From: an uncultured Myxococcales bacterium
GTDB taxonomy: Bacteria; Myxococcota_A; Polyangia; Polyangiales; Houyiibacteriaceae
Assembly: GCA_965365555.1 (NCBI GenBank)
Contig: CBDUCC010000002.1
Span: 1 to 34,964 of the forward strand
Direction: 5' to 3'
Length of the DNA stretch: 34,964 nucleotides
The notes beneath the pieces were generated by a model. The model did not search any database. It was not told where the DNA came from and saw only the letters and a list, made by a program, of their open reading frames with translations. Below, in pieces: positions 19,554-28,676 of the stretch. Each line of letters begins with the position of its first letter. Position 1 is the stretch's first letter. The translations under genes and the position numbers were made by a program.

Positions 19554-20723
19554 TCACGGCTCCGCGAACGGATCGCTGTAGGCCGGGTTCGTCAGCAACT
19601 CTTCGTCGGTCAATGCCTCCAAGAAGGCGATGATGTCCGCTTTTTCGCGCTCGGTCATCGCGAAGCCACTGACGAACGCGCTCTTGTTCGGATTGAGCGC
19701 GCCGTCCCCTGCGTTGGGACCGTCCTCGATCAGACGCCCCCCTCGCGCGTAGTGGTCGAGCACCTCTTCGAGCGTCGCGATCGAGCCGTCGTGCATGTAG
19801 GGCGCGGTCAGGGCGATGTTTCGTAGGCTCGGTGGCTTGAAGCGGCCCTTGTCGGCCGCGTCGCCGGTCATGTCGAAGAGCCCTTGGTTGCCAGCCGGGT
19901 AGCTGCCGTCCTCGTCGAGATTGTAGAGGCCGTTGTTCATGAAGAACTTCTGATCGAACACCTGCCCCGCATCGTCGGAGGCCTGGGAGAAAAGAAAGCC
20001 GCCGTGGCAATGGAAGCACTCGAATGCATCTTCGACGCCCGCCTCGTTGGGACCGCCCAAGAACAACGCCAAGCCACGCTGTTCCGACGCATTGAGCGCC
20101 GTCGCGTCTCCCGCCTGCCAGCGGTCCACTCGGGACTTGAAGCTGGTCACGGAACGCTGGAAGGCTGCGAGTGCCTTGGTGATGCTGTCGAGGTTGATCG
20201 GATCGGGGTCTTCCGGAAACGCATCTGCGAACATCTCCGGGTAGCGCTCGTCGTCCTGCAAGCGCTCGAGAAGAATACCCTCCATGTTGGCCAGGCCGAG
20301 CTCGACCGGATCTTCGCCGAACATCGGCACCAGCGCCTGGCGCTCCAAGCGCACCAAGACCTCGTTGGCCCAGGTGAGCGAGGCGGCGTAGGCCGAGTTT
20401 GCGATGCTCATCGATGAGCGTGGGTGAAGCTCGCCGGTCGATCCCTCGGAACGCGCCAAGCCGTCGGTGAACGCCAGCGCCTGCTGGTGGCAGGAGCCAC
20501 AGCTCTGCGTTTGGTTTCCAGAGAGCCGCGTGTCGTAGAAGAGGAACCTCCCGAGCTCGACCTTCGCCTTCGTCATCGGATTGTCCTCGGGCACCCGAGG
20601 CTCGGGAACCGTCTCGGGCAGATCCCAGGCCCAATCCGCCGTACCGGACCCGGCGTCATCACCGCAGCCGGATGCGAGCAGGCCAAGGGCCAAGAACAAA
20701 GAGAAGAACCGCATATCGAGCAA
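19554..20723 (-). CDS. mbnH: MbnH-like di-heme cytochrome c peroxidase/MauG-family enzyme (MXAN_0977-type), lipoprotein-like signal
   Basis: Two CxxCH heme motifs (CGSCH at 20487-20501, CFHCH at 20004-20018), CCP/MauG-like PSLRNIALTAPYMHDGS, a signal with a LLASGC lipobox-like site, and position immediately downstream of an MbnP-like gene. Confidence 0.85.
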   Translation of the reverse strand: MLDMRFFSLFLALGLLASGCGDDAGSGTADWAWDLPETVPEPRVPEDNPMTKAKVELGRFLFYDTRLSGNQTQSCGSCHQQALAFTDGLARSEGSTGELHPRSSMSIANSAYAASLTWANEVLVRLERQALVPMFGEDPVELGLANMEGILLERLQDDERYPEMFADAFPEDPDPINLDSITKALAAFQRSVTSFKSRVDRWQAGDATALNASEQRGLALFLGGPNEAGVEDAFECFHCHGGFLFSQASDDAGQVFDQKFFMNNGLYNLDEDGSYPAGNQGLFDMTGDAADKGRFKPPSLRNIALTAPYMHDGSIATLEEVLDHYARGGRLIEDGPNAGDGALNPNKSAFVSGFAMTEREKADIIAFLEALTDEELLTNPAYSDPFAEP

Positions 20724-20732
20724 GCTATAGGG

Positions 20733-21584
20733 CTATTGGGGGGCCGCGGCCCGTTCGACGGCCGAAAAAACCGTCTGCGGGCCGGATGGCTCGGCGCCTC
20801 CGAAGGGGAGACCGAGATTGTCGAAGATCGGGGCGCAATCGCTGTCCATCGGACCTGCCATGCAGCCGACCGGCGTCATGTCTTGGTTTTCGTCGAGCGC
20901 GGCGCCATCGAGCAGCGCGGCCACGTCGAAGACAATCACGTCGTTCGCCGGGTTGAAGTCGTCGAGCTCGACCTCGACGCGATTCGGCGCTCCGCACTGA
21001 GTGGTGCCGCCCGACTGCGGGTCGCCATCGCAGCCCGTGCTACCCAGGTGCATCCGCCAGGCATCCTCCGAGAAGTTACCGGAGTCGATCCGGAGGAACT
21101 TGTAGCCACCCTGCCAGTTCCACCACATCGAGCTCGAGTTGAGAGGCGCAGGCGCCGTTGGCTGGTTCTGGTGGTTCTCGTCGAAGGGCACCCCCATCTG
21201 GAACTGGATCCCGACGTAGTCGCCGAACGGGAGCGTGCCCGTGATCGTTTGGTTCGTCGGCTCGTTGCCGAAGTCCCCGCAGCCGTCCTCGAAGTCGAGC
21301 AGCGCCAGGTTCGGGAGCTGCCAAATGCTATCGACGTTGTCCATCGGCACTTCCTCTCCGGAGGCGGTGATGAACGCGACGTCCTGCACGTAGAAACGTA
21401 GGTCGCTCAGCGTGAGCGAGCTGCCGTTCGCGCCGAGATCCTCGTAGGTCTCGCCGCAAACGAACGGTTCGTCCGCCACCACAGCTGCGAACTCGATCGC
21501 CACGGCGCTCGAGCCTTCTCCGCTTTCGCCACAGCTCGCGATCAACGAACCCAGCACCAACGACACGACTACAAACTTACTCAT
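20733..21584 (-). CDS. mbnP: MbnP-family copper-binding protein (metallo-mystery pair Cys-motif protein), lipoprotein
   Basis: Lipobox LIASC. Family-like blocks LSDLRFYVQDV, LLDFEDGCG, MWWNWQGGYKFLRID and HLGSTGC. Six Cys after the lipobox. A GGAG SD lies 9 nt upstream. Paired with the di-heme enzyme gene. Confidence 0.8.
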   Translation of the reverse strand: MSKFVVVSLVLGSLIASCGESGEGSSAVAIEFAAVVADEPFVCGETYEDLGANGSSLTLSDLRFYVQDVAFITASGEEVPMDNVDSIWQLPNLALLDFEDGCGDFGNEPTNQTITGTLPFGDYVGIQFQMGVPFDENHQNQPTAPAPLNSSSMWWNWQGGYKFLRIDSGNFSEDAWRMHLGSTGCDGDPQSGGTTQCGAPNRVEVELDDFNPANDVIVFDVAALLDGAALDENQDMTPVGCMAGPMDSDCAPIFDNLGLPFGGAEPSGPQTVFSAVERAAAPQ

Positions 21585-21602
21585 GAAAAATCTCCGCGAT
21601 CA

Positions 21603-22331
21603 TTAGAATCCGTCTTCCTGGTTCGGAAGCGCGGCCTGTAGCGAGGACTGCACGTTTTCAGTGATTCGCTCTCGCACCGCGTCCTCGGAAAGCAGTGCAA
21701 AATCGATGCCATCAAACCAGCTCCTGTGGTCGATGCGAATGGAGATGTTTTCTACGATGGGGCTCTCGAAGACCAGCGGGCGATCGAGCGGCAACTCGCA
21801 TTCGAGAAGGTCCGTGATCGGAACGAAGAGCTCGGTCTGCGTCTCCTCGCCCTCGGCCCGAACCCGTCCTTCGACGAGGACGGTATGCTCCGTCATCTCT
21901 TGGTTTTTCTCGTCCAGGCCCGGCGCATCGGCGTCGGCCGGCATTCCAACCAAGCGGACACCGCAATAGCGACCGGGCGGCGGCTTCATCGTTCCGGCGT
22001 ACTCCGGCGTGCCGGCGCCCTCCATCAGATCGAGCACGAGCGGCTCGCCGAGGCTCGTGGGTGTATCGAGCACGTGCGCTCTTGCCCGCGCGGCTCCGAA
22101 AAGCTCCCAGAGATCCGCGACAGAATTGTCGCATCGGATCAGCTCCACCTGGCCGACTGCGACCAGCGCGCGATCGAGCCGAATGCGGTATCCGAGGTCG
22201 GTTCGAATCTCGAAGGGGGTCGGCTCGGTCAGGTAGGCCAGATCGACTTCGATGCCGTCGGTCACCCGCATGCACTGCGGGAGCGCGGCCGTGCAAAGCA
22301 CGGTGATGGCCAGTGCGAGGCTAAATCTCAT
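21603..22331 (-). CDS. Secreted hypothetical protein with no recognised family
   Basis: 242-aa ORF with a hydrophobic N-terminal signal (MRFSLALAITVLCTAALPQC). Acidic mature part. Overlaps the upstream barrel gene by 11 nt. Confidence 0.6.
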   Translation of the reverse strand: MRFSLALAITVLCTAALPQCMRVTDGIEVDLAYLTEPTPFEIRTDLGYRIRLDRALVAVGQVELIRCDNSVADLWELFGAARARAHVLDTPTSLGEPLVLDLMEGAGTPEYAGTMKPPPGRYCGVRLVGMPADADAPGLDEKNQEMTEHTVLVEGRVRAEGEETQTELFVPITDLLECELPLDRPLVFESPIVENISIRIDHRSWFDGIDFALLSEDAVRERITENVQSSLQAALPNQEDGF

Positions 22332-23253
22332 AGACGAGACCTGCCGTGAACGCGAAACCCTCTCGGTGCGTGCCGTCGAGCCGCTGGATCAGCGGAAGCG
22401 CGGCCGTCATGTGCATCATGACCTTCTGGTGCGGGAGCCCGACGATACCGAGCGTACCGTAGGTGATGTTTCCACCGGTATTCGGATCTCGGACGTCGCC
22501 GATGTAGCCCGGACCGTCGAGCCGGAACTCCGCGCCGAGCTGAAACGCGAGAAAACTCCACGGCTGGAACTGAGCGAGCGCGGTCTGCCGAAAGCTCGAG
22601 CTCGCGCGCGTCTCTGCGATGCCCTCGGTTGGAAAGATCGCTATGGAGGAGACGTACAGCGACCAGGGATCGAGGAACATCGTGTAGGAAGCACCGGCGA
22701 TCGGATCCCAGGAGCCCGTTCCCGCTTGAAATTCGAGCGGCAGGGGCACCCCATTGTCGTCGTATTCGATCGAGCTGGTCGGGAACTCGAGTCCCGCGAT
22801 CATGCTGACCAGGTGACGCGGCGCGAACTTTCGATCCCGCCAGATCACTCCTCGAACACGCAGATCCAGATCCCCCGGCGCCCAGATGCTCGCCTCGGCG
22901 AGGTTCACCTCGGTGATCAAACGGTGCACGACCGGCATCATCAGCGACAAGCTCACGCGATCGGTCGGTGAATACGCGCCCGCGAGCTCCATCCGTTGCT
23001 CCGAGAGCGTGAGCCGATCGACCTCGCTTTCTCCGATGCTGTCGTTTCGATGCCGGAGCGTCGCAGAGGTCCGCACTCGATTCTCTTGCGGCTGCTCGAA
23101 GCCAACGATGGTGAGCGTCGGGTCGCCCACCGAGCAGGTGCCACAGGCCCACGCCGGGGCCGGCATTGCAATCACCCCCCCGATTGCCGCCGTAGCCGCC
23201 ATCGTCCACCAAGCTCTCACCGCCCGGAGGTTAGGCGCGACGGGCTTGGACAT
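22321..23253 (-). CDS. Predicted small outer-membrane beta-barrel protein (MetA-pathway/transporter-like) with an N-terminal CxxC
   Basis: Sec signal ending AWA. Predicted mature N-terminus CGTCSVGDPT (23134-23145). Repeated amphipathic alternating strands and a terminal aromatic-rich strand (GFAFTAGLVYEI). Confidence 0.6.
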   Translation of the reverse strand: MSKPVAPNLRAVRAWWTMAATAAIGGVIAMPAPAWACGTCSVGDPTLTIVGFEQPQENRVRTSATLRHRNDSIGESEVDRLTLSEQRMELAGAYSPTDRVSLSLMMPVVHRLITEVNLAEASIWAPGDLDLRVRGVIWRDRKFAPRHLVSMIAGLEFPTSSIEYDDNGVPLPLEFQAGTGSWDPIAGASYTMFLDPWSLYVSSIAIFPTEGIAETRASSSFRQTALAQFQPWSFLAFQLGAEFRLDGPGYIGDVRDPNTGGNITYGTLGIVGLPHQKVMMHMTAALPLIQRLDGTHREGFAFTAGLVYEI

Positions 23254-23278
23254 GTATGCGGCAAATCGTCGCAGTGGC

Positions 23279-23851
23279 TCAGCGCGGGGTCGGGAACTTG
23301 GCGAGCTTGCGCTGCAGCGACCGTCGGTGAATTCCGAGCCTTTCCGCCGCCTTGGTGATGTTTCCCTGGCAATCCGTCAGGACCCGTTGGATGTGTTCCC
23401 ACTCGACGCGGGCCAGCGACGGGGTGTCCGGAAGCCCTTCGGTGCGGCTTGCTGCCTCGAGGGGTTCGTCACTTCGCCGGTCGAACGCGGCGATGACCTC
23501 GTCCACATCGGCAGGCTTGGTGAGATAGTGGGTGGCTCCCAGCCGCACGGCCTCGAGCGCCGTTGCGATGCTGCCGTACCCGGTCAGGACGACGATTTTC
23601 GTTGCCTTGTCGATGCGGTGCAGCTCCTGCACGAGCTCCAGCCCGGACTTTCCAGGCATCCGGAGGTCGACTACCGCCAACTCGGTGCTCTCCTCCGAGG
23701 CAATCGCGATCGCTTCGTCGTAGTCGCCCGCCTCGTGCGTCTCGTACCCTCGCTCGGCGAACGCTCGCACCATCCTCGAACGAAGGCGCTGATCGTCGTC
23801 GACCAGAAGTACCGAAGGCTTCGGAGTATGAATTGGGCTCTGTTCCGTCAT
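23279..23851 (-). CDS. regA: ActR/RegA/PrrA-family response regulator (REC plus Fis-type HTH)
   Basis: 190 aa. REC motifs (LLVDDD, VVDLRMP, LTKP) and the RegA-like C-terminal HTH NITKAAERLGIHRRSLQRKLAK. ATGA overlap with the kinase gene. Confidence 0.85.
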   Translation of the reverse strand: MTEQSPIHTPKPSVLLVDDDQRLRSRMVRAFAERGYETHEAGDYDEAIAIASEESTELAVVDLRMPGKSGLELVQELHRIDKATKIVVLTGYGSIATALEAVRLGATHYLTKPADVDEVIAAFDRRSDEPLEAASRTEGLPDTPSLARVEWEHIQRVLTDCQGNITKAAERLGIHRRSLQRKLAKFPTPR

Positions 23852-25089
23852 TCCGATTGGGGCAGCGTCACTACGATCGTAGTGCCTCGCTCGGGTATCG
23901 ATTCGATCTGAAGCCGACCTCCGAGCGAGTCAACGAGCGTCCTGGCCAGGAATAAGCCTAGCCCCATCCGGTCGCCAGCGTCCTTGGTCGTGAAGAATGG
24001 ATCGACCGCCCGTGCGAGAACTTCGGGCACCATACCGTGCCCTTCGTCGCTGAAACGCAGCTCGATCTCCCCGTCGAGTGAACGCACCACCAGAGCGACC
24101 CGGCCTGTCTCGCAGGCATCGAAGCCGTTTCGAGCGATGTTCTCGGTCATCTGGATCAGCGCTTCGCGCGGCGCCTGAATCGTCGCGACCTCGCTCTTGG
24201 TCTGCCAGCGTTGGGCCTGATCGGCGGCGAGCCTCCTTCGAACCTCGGAGAAGAGCTCCTCGAGCCCGATGCTCTGCACCGTTTCACCAACGTGTTCGCC
24301 GCCCGCTGCGGCCATCCGATCGAGAACGAGGCGGCAGCGTTCGAGCTCCTCACGGATGAGCTGCGCGTCTTCGAGCACACCGTCGGCCCCATCCAGCCTC
24401 TCGGCTTGCCTCTTGATCTCGTTCGCGGCGACCGCGATCGTTCCGAGCGGGGTGCCGAGCTCATGCGCTGCGCCGGCAGCCAGATTGGCAATCGAGGCGA
24501 GCTTCCCCCACCGATGTGAGCGTTCCTCCGCCTCGGCGAGGGCTCGCTCTCGACGACGCAGCTCGAGCGAGAGCTGGCTCACGAAATAGGTGATCAAGGC
24601 GACGGCGAGAACCAGCGCGATCAACATGCCGTAGAGGTGCGCCTGGAAGCCCTCCCCGTGCACCCCGTGTCCGACGTGCTCGCTCGGTCCGTGCACGACG
24701 AACAGCGCGGCGAACGAGGCGACCGAAAGCACGGCGATCGCCCAGGTCCACCGCGGTGCCAGCATCACGGCGCTCATCGCGATGTACACGACATAGATGA
24801 TGCTGAACGGATTGGTCGGCCCGCCCGAGTAGTGGAGCAACGCAGTCAGGATGAGCACATCGAGCACGAGGTAGGCACCGAGGTGTCCTGCCAGCGAGCG
24901 TCGCCAAGTAAGCCAGAGGTTCGAGGCGACCCCGAGCGCGACCAACGCCCACATTCGCATCCAAGGCAGCTCCGCGCCGAGGGCGCGGTCGGCGATCACG
25001 AGCGACGCCGCGACGATTGCCAAGGCACCCCAACGCAGTCTCGCCAGCCATTGCGCGCCGGCGGCGCTGGCTCGCGGCTCCGGGGTCAC
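23848..25089 (-). CDS. regB: RegB/PrrB-family redox-sensing histidine kinase
   Basis: Six predicted TM helices. GGPTNPF (24805-24825) matches the RegB GGXXNPF quinone-site motif. H-box AAHELGTPL. Cys flanked by Arg (ERCRLVL, Cys codon 24334-24336), as in the RegB redox box. HATPase G-boxes (DEGHGM, GLGLFL). The GTG start overlaps the dnaK stop. Confidence 0.82.
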
Positions 25090-26933
25090 GAGTCGGTCTG
25101 GGCCTCGCCCGTCTGGGCGGCGTCGAGATCGACATTACCGTACATCGCTTCGGCGATCTTGTACGCGCTGAGCTCGAGCGTTTCGAGAGCGTCACGGATC
25201 GCGATCGCGTCGCCCTCCTCGACGCTGCTGTGGAGAGCCTGGATGTCGGCCTCGACCTGCGCGACCACTTCTTCCGGGACGAGCTCTCGGCATTCCGCCA
25301 CGGCGCGCTCGCTCGTGTAGAGCAGGGCTTCAGCCGCGTTGCGAAGCTCGGCGAGCTCGCGACGCTTCTGGTCTGTCGTCTTGTACTGCTCCGCCTCGCC
25401 GATGATGCGCTCGATGTCGGACTCGGTCAGGCCGCTCGAAGCCACGACGCGAATGTTCTGTTCGCGTCCGGTTCCGAGGTCCTTTGCGCTGACGTTCACC
25501 ACACCGTCGGCATCGATGTCGAAGGTCACCTCGATCTCGGGAACCCCTCGCGGCGCTGGCAGAATCGGCGCCAACTCGAACTTCGCGAGTGACTTGTTGT
25601 CGTCCGCCATCTCACGCTCGCCTTGGAGTACGTGAATCGGTACGAAGCTCTGGTTGTCCACGCTCGTCGTGAAGATTTCCTTGGCCCGGGTCGGGACGGT
25701 GGTGTTGCGCGGAATCAGCTTGTGGAACACGCCGCCCCCCGTTTCCACGCCGAGGCTCAGCGGGGTGACGTCGAGCAACAACACCTCCTCGACATCCCCG
25801 CTGAGGGCTGCGCCTTGGAGCGCCGCGCCCATCGCGACGACCTCGTCCGGGTTGACGCCCTTGTACGGCTCTTTTCCAAAGAAATCCGACACTTTGGACC
25901 GCACGAGAGGCATCCGGGTCTGGCCGCCGACCAGCAGGATCTCGTCGATGTCCTCGCGCTTCACGCCGGCATCGTCGAGCGCCTGCGCACAGGGTCCGAG
26001 CGTGCGGTCGATGATTTCCGAGACCAGGATCTCAAGCTCGCTTCGTTTCACCCGGGTCTCGAGATGCTTCGGGCCCGAGGCGTCAGATGCGATGAAGGGT
26101 AGGTTCACTTCGGTCTCGAGAGCCGAAGATAGCTCATGCTTGGCCTTCTCGGCCTGCTCCTTGAGCCGCTGGAGCGCCACGCGGTCCTCGCGCAGGTTGA
26201 TCCCACTCTCTTCTTCGAATCTTCGCGCAAGCTCTTCGACGAGCGCGTTGTCGATGTCTTCGCCGCCGAGGTGCGTATCCCCGGAGGTGGACTTCACGCT
26301 GAAGACGCCATCGGCGATTTCCAAGACGGAGATGTCGAACGTGCCGCCGCCGAGGTCGTACACCGCTACCCGTTTTCCCTCGTGCTCTTCGAAGCCGTAC
26401 GCCAAGGCAGCCGCAGTGGGCTCGTTGATGATCCGGCGGACCTCGAGGCCGGCGATCTTTCCTGCTGCGATCGTAGCTGACCGCTGTGCGTCATTGAAGT
26501 AGGCAGGCACCGTGACGATTGCCTCCTCGACGGTGTCGCCGAGAAAAGCCTCTGCCACCTCGCGCATCTTCTCGAGGACCATCGCCGAGATCTCGGGCGG
26601 GGAGTACCGATGGTCCCCGATCTGCACCCAAGCGTCCCCGCGCTCGCTTTCGACGACCTTGTAGGGCACGACCCGGCGATGTGTTTCTGCGGCCTCCGCG
26701 TCGAATCCCAGGCCCATCAGCCGCTTGATCGCGAACACCGTGCTCTCCGGGTTCGTGACCCCCTGTCGTTTCGCCACGCTGCCCACGCGCCGCTCGCCAT
26801 CCTTGGCGAACGAGACGACCGAGGGCGTCGTTCGACTTCCCTCTGCGTTAGGAATGACTCGTGGCTCGCCGTTGTCGACGAACGCGACACAGGAGTTGGT
26901 CGTTCCCAGATCGATCCCGATGATTTTCCCCAT
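25086..26933 (-). CDS. dnaK: Molecular chaperone DnaK (Hsp70)
   Basis: [27 protein letters not shown] and the full Hsp70 architecture over 615 aa. Confidence 0.97.
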
Positions 26934-26987
26934 CTGCCCTAACCTTCCTTATAGCGCGAGCAGTGGGGTGTTCGCACCTTGCTGACC

Positions 26988-27602
26988 TCAGTGCTCGCTC
27001 GGCGGCGAGCTCTCCTGATCATCCGTCCGTGTGGGTGGCTTTGCAACCACGACCATCGCAGGCCGCAGCAGCCGCTCCCCGAGGTAGTAGCCGGGCACGA
27101 CTTCGCTCACGATGGTTCCCGGTGCGTACTCCTCGGTCTCCTGCTGCTGCATAGCGTCATGGCAGGTCGGGTCGAACTGCTCACCGACCGCGGGGACGCG
27201 CTTCAGACCAAGCCGGTTCGCCACGTCTTCGAAGCCGCGGAGCACCATGTGAACGCCGTCCGCGACCGCAGCGACTTCGGTTGCATCGTTCATCGCTTCT
27301 GCTGCGCGCTCGAGGTTGTCGACGATCGGGAGCACCTCGCGGAGGGTGTCCTCGATGGTGCGACGGCGGACCTCTTCGATCTCTTTGCGGGAGCGCTTTC
27401 GGAAATTGTCGAAGTCGGCTGCGATTCGGAGGAGCTGATCTCTCATCCGGTCGCGCTCGGCCCTCGCCTTGTCGAGGTCGCTGAGCTCGGCACCGCCGCC
27501 TTCGCTGCCCTCCTCGGACACTTCGTCTGGGAAGATCACTTCCTCGTCGCCCTCTGCGGCGTTCTGGCCATTGTCGGGCGCGTCGCCCTCGTGCTCGCTC
27601 AT
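26988..27602 (-). CDS. grpE: Nucleotide exchange factor GrpE
   Basis: 204 aa. Acidic N-terminus, long helix (RDQLLRIAADFDNFRKRSRKE) and a C-terminal beta domain (GYYLGERLLRPAMVVV). Confidence 0.93.
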   Translation of the reverse strand: MSEHEGDAPDNGQNAAEGDEEVIFPDEVSEEGSEGGGAELSDLDKARAERDRMRDQLLRIAADFDNFRKRSRKEIEEVRRRTIEDTLREVLPIVDNLERAAEAMNDATEVAAVADGVHMVLRGFEDVANRLGLKRVPAVGEQFDPTCHDAMQQQETEEYAPGTIVSEVVPGYYLGERLLRPAMVVVAKPPTRTDDQESSPPSEH

Positions 27603-27617
27603 GTTCCCCGTCCTTCG

Positions 27618-28676
27618 CTAGGAGCGCTTCGATGTCCCTGGGATTCGCCCGTCGAGGACATCACTCAACAGGTTGGCCGCAAACCCGACCAGAGGCACGT
27701 ACTTCCGGTAATCCATCCGCGTGGGCCCGACGATACCGAACGAGCCCACGCTCGATCCATCCCGGCGGTATGGGCTCGAGATCACGCTGATGTCCCGGAC
27801 GTCCTGTAAAGCCGCCTCTGAGCCGATGAACACTTGAACACCATCGGCCATCAAAGTCTGCTCGAGCAGCTCGAGGAGCTTTTGCTTCTCCTCGAAGGCG
27901 CTCAGATAGCCGCGAATCTTCTCCGCGTCGCCAAACTCGGGCCGGTCGAACAAGGCGCCCTGTCCCTCGATGACGACCTGTGTTGGTTCCGTCTGCCCCT
28001 CGACGGTCGCTTCGACCATCTCGCGCGCGTGCTTTCGAAGCACGTGGTACTGGCCTTCTTCGTGGGCCAGCCGAACCGCCAGTCGGTCTCGCACGCCGCG
28101 AAGCGTATTCCCCTGCACCAAGTCGCCGAGGTAGTTGTTGACGCGTTCGAGGGTGTGATCATCGATTTGCAGCTCGGTGACTACGACGCGGTTTTCGACG
28201 CTTCCCGATCGGGTCACCAGGACCGCGAGGGTTCGTCCCTCGGCGAGCCGCATGAAGCGTAGCTGCGCGAGGGGCGCTTCCACCACCGGCTGCTGTGCGA
28301 TGATCGCCGCCGTCCCCGTGAGCCGGCTGAGGATCTGTCCGGTCTCTCGCACGGCATCCGCTCCAGGCTCCAAGTCCGCGAGCCGCTGCATGAGTGCGGC
28401 CCGATGGGCTTGAGAGATCTCGCCTGCTGTCGCCATCGCATCGACGAAGGAGCGAAAGCCGGCATCGGTGGGCACGCGCCCCGCGCTGGTGTGAGGCTGG
28501 TGAAGGAGCTCCGCGTCCTCGAGATCGGCGAGCACGTTTCGAATCGTCGCTGGCGAGAGCTGCACGGCGTACCGCTTCGCGATCCGTCGCGAACCCACCG
28601 GTCTGCCCGAAGCGATGTACTCGGTCACCACGGCGAAGAGGATTCGTCGGTGGCGCTCGTCCAATGTCACGGTCAC
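27618..28676 (-). CDS. hrcA: Heat-inducible transcription repressor HrcA
   Basis: Winged-helix N-terminus (LDERHRRILFAVVTEYIASGRPVGSRRIAKRY) and HrcA C-terminal blocks (IGSEA, GIVGPTRMDY). The start is ambiguous among GTG 28676, GTG 28670 and TTG 28664. Confidence 0.92.
   Translation of the reverse strand: MTVTLDERHRRILFAVVTEYIASGRPVGSRRIAKRYAVQLSPATIRNVLADLEDAELLHQPHTSAGRVPTDAGFRSFVDAMATAGEISQAHRAALMQRLADLEPGADAVRETGQILSRLTGTAAIIAQQPVVEAPLAQLRFMRLAEGRTLAVLVTRSGSVENRVVVTELQIDDHTLERVNNYLGDLVQGNTLRGVRDRLAVRLAHEEGQYHVLRKHAREMVEATVEGQTEPTQVVIEGQGALFDRPEFGDAEKIRGYLSAFEEKQKLLELLEQTLMADGVQVFIGSEAALQDVRDISVISSPYRRDGSSVGSFGIVGPTRMDYRKYVPLVGFAANLLSDVLDGRIPGTSKRS

Follow-up and report, generated by a model that had tools for sequence, protein, structure and literature searches.

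The passage of copper across the outer membrane is poorly understood beyond a few TonB-dependent systems. A gene string in a 34,964-nucleotide stretch of DNA from an uncultured Myxococcales bacterium (contig CBDUCC010000002.1; the whole stretch is called the window here) raises the question of whether a TonB-independent route may exist, and how it would be controlled. On the minus strand, between positions 19554 and 25089, the genes of a RegB/RegA-type two-component system lie next to those of a small outer-membrane β-barrel, a partner lipoprotein and an MbnP/MbnH pair. The identities of these genes, the fold of the barrel, the conservation of the set in shuffled orders and a cis element with fixed geometry come out of the analysis itself. 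We read them as a RegA-activated envelope module for copper acquisition or delivery, conserved in Myxococcota, and consider the chances of this reading to be about even.

Composition of the gene string

Six minus-strand open reading frames had been described in this region by an initial annotation made from the sequence alone, and all six were recovered by open reading frame listing and direct reading. They encode a regB-type sensor histidine kinase of 413 amino acids (23848-25089, with a GTG start inside the dnaK stop overlap), a regA-type response regulator of 190 amino acids with REC and Fis-type helix-turn-helix domains (23279-23851), an outer-membrane 12-strand β-barrel with a 299-amino-acid precursor (22321-23220, the start being taken from homologues and promoter architecture), the partner lipoprotein of 242 amino acids (21603-22331), an MbnP-family copper-binding protein which is a lipoprotein here (LIAS↓C; 20733-21584), and an MbnH-family di-haem MauG-like enzyme (19554-20723; TIGR04039, PF03150, two CxxCH motifs). 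The ATGA overlap of regB and regA is located at 23848-23851, the 11-nt overlap of the barrel and lipoprotein genes at 22321-22331, and the lipoprotein gene and mbnP are 18 nt apart, all as first annotated. In addition, no terminator-like hairpin was detected on the minus strand between 18500 and 29500, and the spacing is tight and co-directional. The module and its wiring to a RegA-type regulator are well supported by the comparison of loci.

Recurrence of the neighbourhood in Myxococcota

Distant loci were sought by scanning GTDB species genomes with an alignment of the lipoprotein family and by contig look-ups, and their genes were mapped by tblastn (individual loci carry L numbers below). 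In the window's own clade, ~50 syntenic loci show regBA followed by barrel-lipoprotein-mbnP-mbnH. These close relatives are uncultured metagenome-assembled genomes labelled as Polyangiales or Myxococcales, whose lipoprotein is 45-89% identical to that of the window, and they are collinear across the whole ~20-kb region including the housekeeping flanks. This collinearity proves little by itself and would fit an explanation in which adjacency is lineage history, with no functional or regulatory coupling.

Such an explanation is contradicted by the distant loci. Their flanks are unrelated to those of the window, and the same genes are re-associated in other orders and on other strands: barrel-lipoprotein-regB-regA in 14 Myxococcus, Corallococcus, Pyxidicoccus and Citreicoccus genomes, barrel-lipoprotein-mbnP-mbnH in Hyalangium (L057 and L070) and in L063, barrel-lipoprotein-mbnP-mbnH-regB-regA in L067, mbnP-mbnH-lipoprotein-barrel-regB-regA in L074, and, on a JGI contig, regA<-regB<-mbnH<-mbnP divergent from lipoprotein->barrel. 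The order fur-mbnP-mbnH-lipoprotein is seen in L075, and the barrel and lipoprotein genes stand alone in L059, in L076 and in L077-L079, the last three with a GC content of 55% and the same 11-nt overlap. RegBA and/or MbnPH thereby join the barrel and lipoprotein in at least six gene orders with unrelated flanks, so that the neighbourhood, for which conservation had been proposed as the check, does recur across Myxococcota. The cis element described below also travels with whichever gene leads. We regard mere synteny as very improbable.

The barrel gene adjoins the lipoprotein gene in all but one of the sampled lipoprotein-carrying loci, with one more locus being ambiguous. Because RegBA and MbnPH vary among the arrangements, and some loci contain neither, the barrel and its translationally coupled lipoprotein are the invariant core, with MbnPH and RegBA as frequent but dispensable partners. 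The repeated retention or re-joining of RegBA and MbnPH to this core is a signature of functional coupling.

Neither the genes of the window nor the family scans revealed a TonB-dependent receptor in the string, as had been noted from the start. The barrel, which had been described as present instead of such a receptor, is nevertheless no simple replacement, since Hyalangium carries both; Hyalangium L057 is the one locus in which a TonB-dependent receptor lies near the module. A DUF1775/YcnI-like gene, a type described as copper-related (PMC9426467), adjoins the module in the loci of two relatives; in Hyalangium it follows the module.

A conserved box with promoter-like geometry

The spacer between regA and the barrel gene contains a 15-nt inverted repeat resembling a RegA/RegR box, GCGACGATTTGCCGC (23258-23272, minus strand). 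A -10-like hexamer, TAACCT (23228-23233, minus strand), follows 24 nt after the box and lies 7 nt before the GTG start. This repeat is the only exact GCGAC-N5-GCCRC match in the window, and one of three matches to GCGNC-N5-GNCGC compared with 7.4 expected.

For comparison, loci were anchored at the codon for the first of the two CxxC cysteines of the barrel, and box matches were allowed up to one mismatch. GCGAC-N5-GCC(G/A)C was found 115-129 nt upstream of this anchor in 66 of 70 assessable loci (50 of the close clade and 16 of 20 distant ones); in L067 it lies 195 nt upstream, which brings the distant loci with a box to 17 of 20. Conversely, of the 88 exact box matches in 1.05 Mb of collected loci, 66 occupy the anchor position. 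The N5 spacer of the close clade reads GATTT, that of Myxococcaceae AAC(A/T)C. In L052 (6226-7064), an insertion of ~838 nt separates regA from the barrel gene, and the GCGAC-N5-GCCAC box keeps its usual spacing to the barrel. The mbnP gene leads the operon in L074, and here the box is located upstream of mbnP. In L076 (350-1088), a string of a 215-amino-acid protein, the lipoprotein and the barrel is headed by a perfect palindrome, GCGACATCTTGTCGC, which a TAGCTT hexamer follows after 23 nt; the 215-amino-acid protein, encoded by an unannotated gene, has no Pfam match. Hyalangium possesses a second copy of the box, GCGACATTTCGCCGC, after the DUF1775/YcnI-like gene (L057 11166-16548; L070 ~11330), and this copy precedes a His-rich cytochrome c lipoprotein, a TonB-dependent receptor and an HmuY-like protein.

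Close and distant loci share a constant layout of box, 23-24 nt, TAnnnT, 7-10 nt and start codon. As the start codon lies only 7-10 nt past the -10-like hexamer, a leaderless mRNA is predicted, and the element would be a promoter lacking a -35 element, in which the centre of an activator-type site lies about -44 and the transcript is leaderless or nearly so. At the barrel start (23218-23233 in the window, and the equivalent positions in L001-L073), the hexamer leaves no room for a Shine-Dalgarno sequence. Since this conserved promoter-like element sits within the regA-barrel spacer, the six genes may form two transcription units, namely regBA, read together with dnaK, and barrel-lipoprotein-mbnPH.

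As to which protein binds the box, its two halves are imperfect inverted copies of GCGRC, in keeping with the consensus sequences of PrrA (GCGNC-N5-GNCGC) and RegR (GNGRCRTTNNGNCGC). The half-site GCGAC resembles the tabulated RegR boxes (PMC4064962, Table 1), for example TGCGACATCGGCGGC. Because of this resemblance and of the PrrA-like recognition helix of the regulator, RegA is the most economical candidate for the binding protein.

Two other identities of the box were considered and discarded. A sigma-54 or extracytoplasmic-function (ECF) promoter element does not agree with the lack of GG-N10-GC and with the 23-24 nt spacing to the -10 hexamer. A regA terminator does not agree with the occurrence of the box where no regA lies upstream, nor with a stem of 4/5 pairs and no T-run.

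The RegB/RegA-type pair

The assignment of the two regulators in the initial annotation is upheld by signature motifs and by family matches. The top, full-length match of the kinase is NF033792 (ActS/PrrB/RegB) with 219 bits against a cut-off of 350, followed by the next family at 93 bits; its relatives score 232-257 bits on NF033792. The protein combines the six-transmembrane domain PF25323 with HATPase_c. GGXXNPF between the third and fourth transmembrane helices forms the quinone site and is universal in RegB (PMC3000548), and together with the redox-box cysteine it is treated as RegB-defining (PMC3000548, PMC8191878). In the window the heptapeptide is GGPTNPF (residues 89-95), and it is present in all 59 module-linked homologues. 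The H-box histidine is His209, and Cys252 (ELERCRLVL, R-C-R), 43 residues after it, corresponds to the redox-box cysteine, which is Cys265 in Rhodobacter capsulatus RegB and is kept in 57/59 module-linked homologues. The arginine of the first transmembrane helix (TM1; window 24990-25040) is retained as well (RLRW).

The regulator contains PF00072 and PF02954 in 190 amino acids, without an AAA+ domain. Its top, full-length match is NF033791 (ActR/PrrA/RegA) with 170 bits against a cut-off of 250, and it aligns end to end with the Burkholderia pseudomallei regulator 3RQI. The recognition helix HRRSLQRKLAK is near-identical to that of PrrA (HRRTLQRILAK, 1UMQ) and to that of 3RQI. Combined, these features lead us to treat the pair as RegB/RegA-type, not as proven orthologues. 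Kinases of the RegB type report the state of the quinone pool and the thiol redox state, and oxidation turns the characterised RegB off (PMC3000548); the related RoxSR controls all five terminal oxidases of Pseudomonas aeruginosa (PMC10525716).

CorSR of Myxococcus xanthus was considered as the same system and rejected, since CorR is a sigma-54 NtrC-type regulator and CorS possesses one transmembrane segment plus HAMP (PMC3707914).

MbnP and MbnH

Both members of the MbnP/MbnH pair pass the curated NCBIfam cut-offs, which settles the identities that had been read from the sequence. MbnP scores 264 bits on TIGR04052 (cut-off 140) and also matches PF20243, and MbnH scores 483 bits on TIGR04039 (cut-off 363) and also matches PF03150. 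In the alignment of MbnP with 7L6G, M-x-W-N-W (MWWNWQ vs MAWNWQ), H-x-G-S-T-G-C and GCM..DC are conserved, as is the four-Cys pattern. The two CxxCH haem motifs of MbnH are CGSCH and CFHCH. Lipoprotein-type signal peptides are found here on the partner lipoprotein, on MbnP and, if it starts at ATG 20714, on MbnH. In Methylosinus trichosporium, MbnP binds copper via a Trp-derived kynurenine, and MbnH is thought to install this kynurenine (PMC11951088, PMC11892367). MbnPH-like genes occur in copper-repressed operons with uptake transporters (PMC9426467), and the partners of MopE/CorA are downregulated by copper (PMC3621798). In L048 (8893-9605), mbnP is represented by three short, overlapping tblastn segments of 33-48% identity, which may be a frameshifted or decaying copy.

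These findings bear on whether the module brings copper in or defends against it. Under a defence explanation, the module would sequester or expel periplasmic copper in the manner of PcoB/CopB and be induced by oxidation of the RegB cysteine or by perturbation of the quinone pool during copper or oxidative stress. Outer-membrane barrels do act in copper resistance operons (PMC9210255); MbnP is a periplasmic copper binder (PMC11951088), and the redox cysteine of RegB is conserved. However, oxidation switches the characterised RegB off (PMC3000548) rather than on. The copper repression and uptake linkage of MbnPH-like operons (PMC9426467) and the downregulation of the MopE/CorA partners (PMC3621798) also point away from defence, and all examined loci lack an efflux pump, a multicopper oxidase and a P-type ATPase. 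A role in defence is decidedly unlikely on this evidence.

The barrel and its N-terminal cysteine pair

An AlphaFold2 model of the barrel, built on a 22-sequence alignment, contains 12 strands at a predicted local distance difference test score (pLDDT) of 74 and a predicted template modelling score (pTM) of 0.70; the N-terminal segment, residues 28-51, is below pLDDT 50. Foldseek against the PDB returned FapF (5o65/5o67) and the COG4313 channel (4rl8) as the top matches, with TM 0.63-0.74, probability 1.0 and E 1e-11 to 1e-13, the 4rl8 match having TMt 0.74 and E 1.5e-11. By contrast, no family was matched in Pfam (including PF13557, E up to 10) or in NCBIfam. The initial proposal of a PF13557-type barrel is therefore right at the level of the fold only, because Foldseek finds the matches and the Pfam model itself is silent at E=10.

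The most conserved part of the barrel is its CxxC-GDPTLT N-terminus. The codons for A↓C-G-T-C-S-V-G-D-P-T-L-T lie at 23110-23148 (minus strand). A36, C37, C40, G43, D44, P45, T46, L47 and T48 show no variation among 28 barrels with identities down to 30%. Of the 39 positions that never vary in this set, 12 sit in the first 20 mature residues (A↓C-x-x-C-x-x-G-D-P-T-L-T-x-x-G-x-E-x-P). The Myxococcaceae barrels read CxxCxC. As an AxA signal-peptidase I site directly precedes the motif everywhere, cleavage probably leaves the first Cys at the start of the mature protein. Motifs of the CxxC type bind Cu(I) (PMC9426467). In both structural relatives, FapF and COG4313, the N-terminal segment plugs the lumen of the barrel.

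A barrel of this fold could also serve protein export. In a surface display or secretion pair, a FapF-like barrel would be the translocon or anchor for the lipoprotein, perhaps also for lipidated MbnP, in the manner of Slam and its lipoproteins or of FapF and its substrate, and metal would be caught at the cell surface as by MopE/CorA. FapF, a polypeptide transporter, is indeed the top structural match, the two genes adjoin each other at every sampled locus except one, often with the 11-nt overlap, three proteins of the string have lipoprotein-type signal peptides, and in Hyalangium a TonB-dependent receptor and an HmuY-like lipoprotein stand under the second box. Nevertheless, the conservation of CxxC-GDPTLT suggests a ligand or redox site instead of a generic translocon trait, the small-molecule channel COG4313 fits the barrel as well as FapF does, and the FapF-like coiled-coil N-terminal domain is absent. 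We therefore rate this arrangement as unlikely, although it is the most serious of the rivals.

The partner lipoprotein

The protein that had been called an orphan secreted protein is a lipoprotein, and its family is sizeable though unnamed. When 1.84 billion representatives were searched with a profile, 593 clusters matched at E <= 1e-3, of which 329 reached E <= 1e-10, and on account of these 593 cluster representatives the family is real and the protein no orphan; a homologue search with a profile of distant members scored 11 proteins only. Cys20 (the lipobox), His86 and Pro117 are invariant, Cys67, Cys123 and Asp133 nearly so, and PPPGxYC, ADxDAxGL and WFDGIDF recur as family motifs. No family was matched when the lipoprotein and 69 diverse members were compared with Pfam and NCBIfam at permissive E-values, and its profile gave a signal-peptide match only among PDB sequences.

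A diverged MbnP was considered as the identity of the lipoprotein and rejected: the hhalign match (P = 0.002) stems from signal peptides and lipoboxes and vanishes once these are trimmed.

The presence of a core pair without relatives of assigned function leaves room for a system that is not concerned with copper at all. Here, the core would handle some other substrate, for instance a hydrophobic compound, iron, haem or a different thiophilic metal, the RegBA-like pair would serve as a dedicated local regulator for a different signal, and MbnPH would be occasional passengers. A hydrophobic compound has been proposed as the substrate of COG4313. The core lacks MbnPH in most Myxococcaceae and stands alone in L059 and L077-L079, a Fur-family gene is found in L075 and HmuY in L057, and both core proteins are without a characterised homologue. 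On the other side, at least five independent arrangements join MbnPH to the core, DUF1775 is linked to it twice, and CxxC is a classical Cu(I) ligand set (PMC9426467). A non-copper role is, in our judgement, quite unlikely.

Proposed mechanism

Under the copper acquisition or delivery reading, RegB would sense the status of the respiratory chain, responding to a reduced chain through the GGXXNPF quinone site and the redox-box cysteine. RegA~P would then bind GCGAC-N5-GCC(G/A)C in the regA-barrel spacer, about -44 relative to a promoter without a -35 element, and activate a leaderless barrel-lipoprotein-mbnP-mbnH transcript. The barrel would admit copper without TonB, with the Cys pair as a binding or gating site, and the lipoprotein and kynurenine-bearing MbnP would catch periplasmic copper for cuproenzymes such as haem-copper oxidases. 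In Myxococcaceae, the barrel-lipoprotein-regB-regA operon would be positively autoregulated. Such a circuit would be analogous to PrrB-PrrC(SenC)-PrrA. In this scheme we infer the binding of the box by RegA, the nature of the signal, copper as the cargo and the direction of transport.

Several observations weigh against this reading. Both RegB and RegA score under the NCBIfam equivalog cut-offs. R31 and Q38 of TM1 are fully conserved in proteobacterial RegB and required for ubiquinone binding (PMC3000548), and the window carries Val in place of the R. capsulatus Q38. This Gln is lost throughout the window's clade (L001-L054), being kept (RLRWxxxxGQ) in the RegB homologues of Myxococcaceae, L067 and L074. 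Moreover, regBA seems to share a transcript with dnaK in the window's clade, and a link of dnaK to copper is not obvious. Myxobacteria use menaquinone and are not known to use ubiquinone. The labelling of the box as a RegA site partly rests on its likeness to consensus sequences. Neither the barrel nor the lipoprotein is tied by experiment to any metal, searches of Pfam, NCBIfam and PDB sequences detected no lipoprotein relative with an assigned function, and the AlphaFold2 model of the lipoprotein, from a shallow alignment of 19 sequences, is unusable at pLDDT 40.

The composition of some loci points in the same direction. Three close relatives, L011, L029 and L045, keep regBA-barrel-lipoprotein without mbnPH and have murB directly after the lipoprotein gene, and no RegBA or MbnPH lies near the barrel-lipoprotein pair of L059 and L077-L079. 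In L075 (4593-7741), a Fur-family gene stands directly upstream of mbnP-mbnH-lipoprotein in place of regBA, and no barrel, regBA or box was detected at this locus, which suggests an alternative metal-dependent control in that lineage. L045 itself is labelled Coxiellaceae; because its synteny is identical to that of Myxococcota, it is probably mis-binned.

A more specific form of the copper reading can be put forward tentatively, and we hold it to be possible but rather doubtful as a whole. In this form, the barrel would be a so far undescribed TonB-independent outer-membrane copper gate with an N-terminal 'cysteine brace' and a dedicated lipoprotein partner, switched on directly by RegA when RegB senses a respiratory chain that backs up, and MbnP/MbnH would be the periplasmic acceptor. 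If true, the cell would read a shortage of working haem-copper oxidase from the quinone pool and respond by importing copper. Myxococcus and Corallococcus, which are cultured and genetically tractable, carry the module, so this idea of a copper-respiration feedback can be tested directly.

Comparison with known systems

The regulatory pair resembles RegB-SenC-RegA/PrrB-PrrC-PrrA of Rhodobacter, and ActSR, RegSR and RoxSR, in its six-transmembrane kinase with GGXXNPF, H-box and redox-box Cys. As in Rhodobacter PrrBCA, the regulator joins REC to a Fis-type helix-turn-helix with a near-identical recognition helix, and a candidate target of the GCGNC inverted-repeat type is present. An envelope copper-handling gene inside the regulator locus is a further likeness to RegB-SenC-RegA; the Rhodobacter reg locus includes senC, as the initial annotation also stated. 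In contrast to Rhodobacter, the pair belongs to Myxococcota, its scores are below the cut-offs, the TM1 Gln is lost in the window's clade, and the linked genes are the barrel, the lipoprotein and MbnPH instead of a Sco-type chaperone.

MbnP/MbnH pairs next to MbnT-type receptors or in methanobactin operons (PMC3621798; 7L6G) share the adjacency of the two genes, the WxW motif and two haem c motifs. Unlike those clusters, the window contains no TonB-dependent receptor, no MbnI/MbnR sigma/anti-sigma pair and no methanobactin genes, both proteins are lipoproteins, and they are accompanied by a RegBA-type system, a small barrel with a CxxC motif and a lipoprotein whose family is unnamed. The copper-uptake operons headed by CruR (DUF2946), such as bp2923-bfrG-bp2921 of Bordetella (PMC9426467), likewise combine an exported CxxC, an outer-membrane transporter and possible MbnPH-like genes. 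There, the CxxC belongs to a small peptide from an upstream open reading frame that steers Rho termination, and the transporter is TonB-dependent (PMC9426467), whereas in the module the barrel's own mature N-terminus is formed by the CxxC, and regulation seems to act on transcription via a two-component system.

In fold, the barrel is like the COG4313 channel (4RL8) and FapF (5O65), with 12 strands and ~270 residues, despite a sequence identity of only 15-16%. To our knowledge, a CxxC-GDPTLT N-terminus and an obligatory lipoprotein partner are features of neither COG4313 nor FapF. PcoB/CopB (PMC9210255) also pair a small TonB-independent barrel in a copper-related cluster with two-component control. 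The Pco regulators CopRS/PcoRS are, however, of the OmpR family and not RegBA, the Pco context is resistance, and PcoB lies outside the top 50 structural matches of the barrel in Foldseek against the PDB.

The nearest systems in logic are thus the PrrB-PrrC(SenC)-PrrA locus and the clusters of MbnPH with TonB receptors, while COG4313 and FapF come closest in fold. In none of the systems compared does a small barrel with a CxxC head occur together with a dedicated lipoprotein, MbnPH and a RegBA-type system, and the searchable literature, which does not extend to the published MbnH neighbourhood analyses, yielded no description of such a set. The set is probably a so far undescribed, two-component-controlled envelope metal module around two uncharacterised families. 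As such, it would be a candidate TonB-independent route for copper, built from two families of which that of the lipoprotein alone counts 593 cluster representatives. It also gives MbnP/MbnH a defined genetic context with a regulator, and it would extend the RegB/RegA type beyond Proteobacteria, the group where it has been studied, together with a predicted operator and a simple autoregulated operon (barrel-lipoprotein-regB-regA).

Junctions, start codons and flanking genes

Some details of the string differ from the first description. The regA-barrel gap of 25 nt rested on a barrel start at ATG 23253, to which the open reading frame extends, whereas a start at GTG 23220 gives 58 nt. GTG 23220, and hence the 58-nt spacer, is most likely correct, because homologues align their start with this codon, TAACCT falls between the two candidate starts, and in several relatives an in-frame stop within the -10-like hexamer excludes the longer frame.

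The string also does not begin at regB and comprises nine genes instead of six: hrcA-grpE-dnaK (25086-28676, minus strand) directly precede regB on the same strand, and the stop codon of dnaK overlaps the GTG of regB (GTGA, 25086-25089). This contiguity is kept in the close relatives, and in this clade regBA may share a transcript with the heat-shock operon or be coupled to it in translation. The three genes are context that stands outside the module elsewhere, as no linkage of hrcA-grpE-dnaK to it was found in Myxococcaceae or the other distant loci. Within 3 mismatches, no CIRCE operator was found in the window when it was sought upstream of hrcA, grpE and dnaK, and an Rfam scan of the window gave no match.

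At the other end, the mbnH stop (19554) is only 2 nt from the convergent murB stop (19551), which leaves no room for a terminator on either strand. The 9 nt originally given between mbnP and mbnH hold with a TTG start at 20723 and become 18 nt if mbnH starts at ATG 20714, a start that yields a cleaner lipoprotein signal peptide (LLASG↓C) than TTG 20723.

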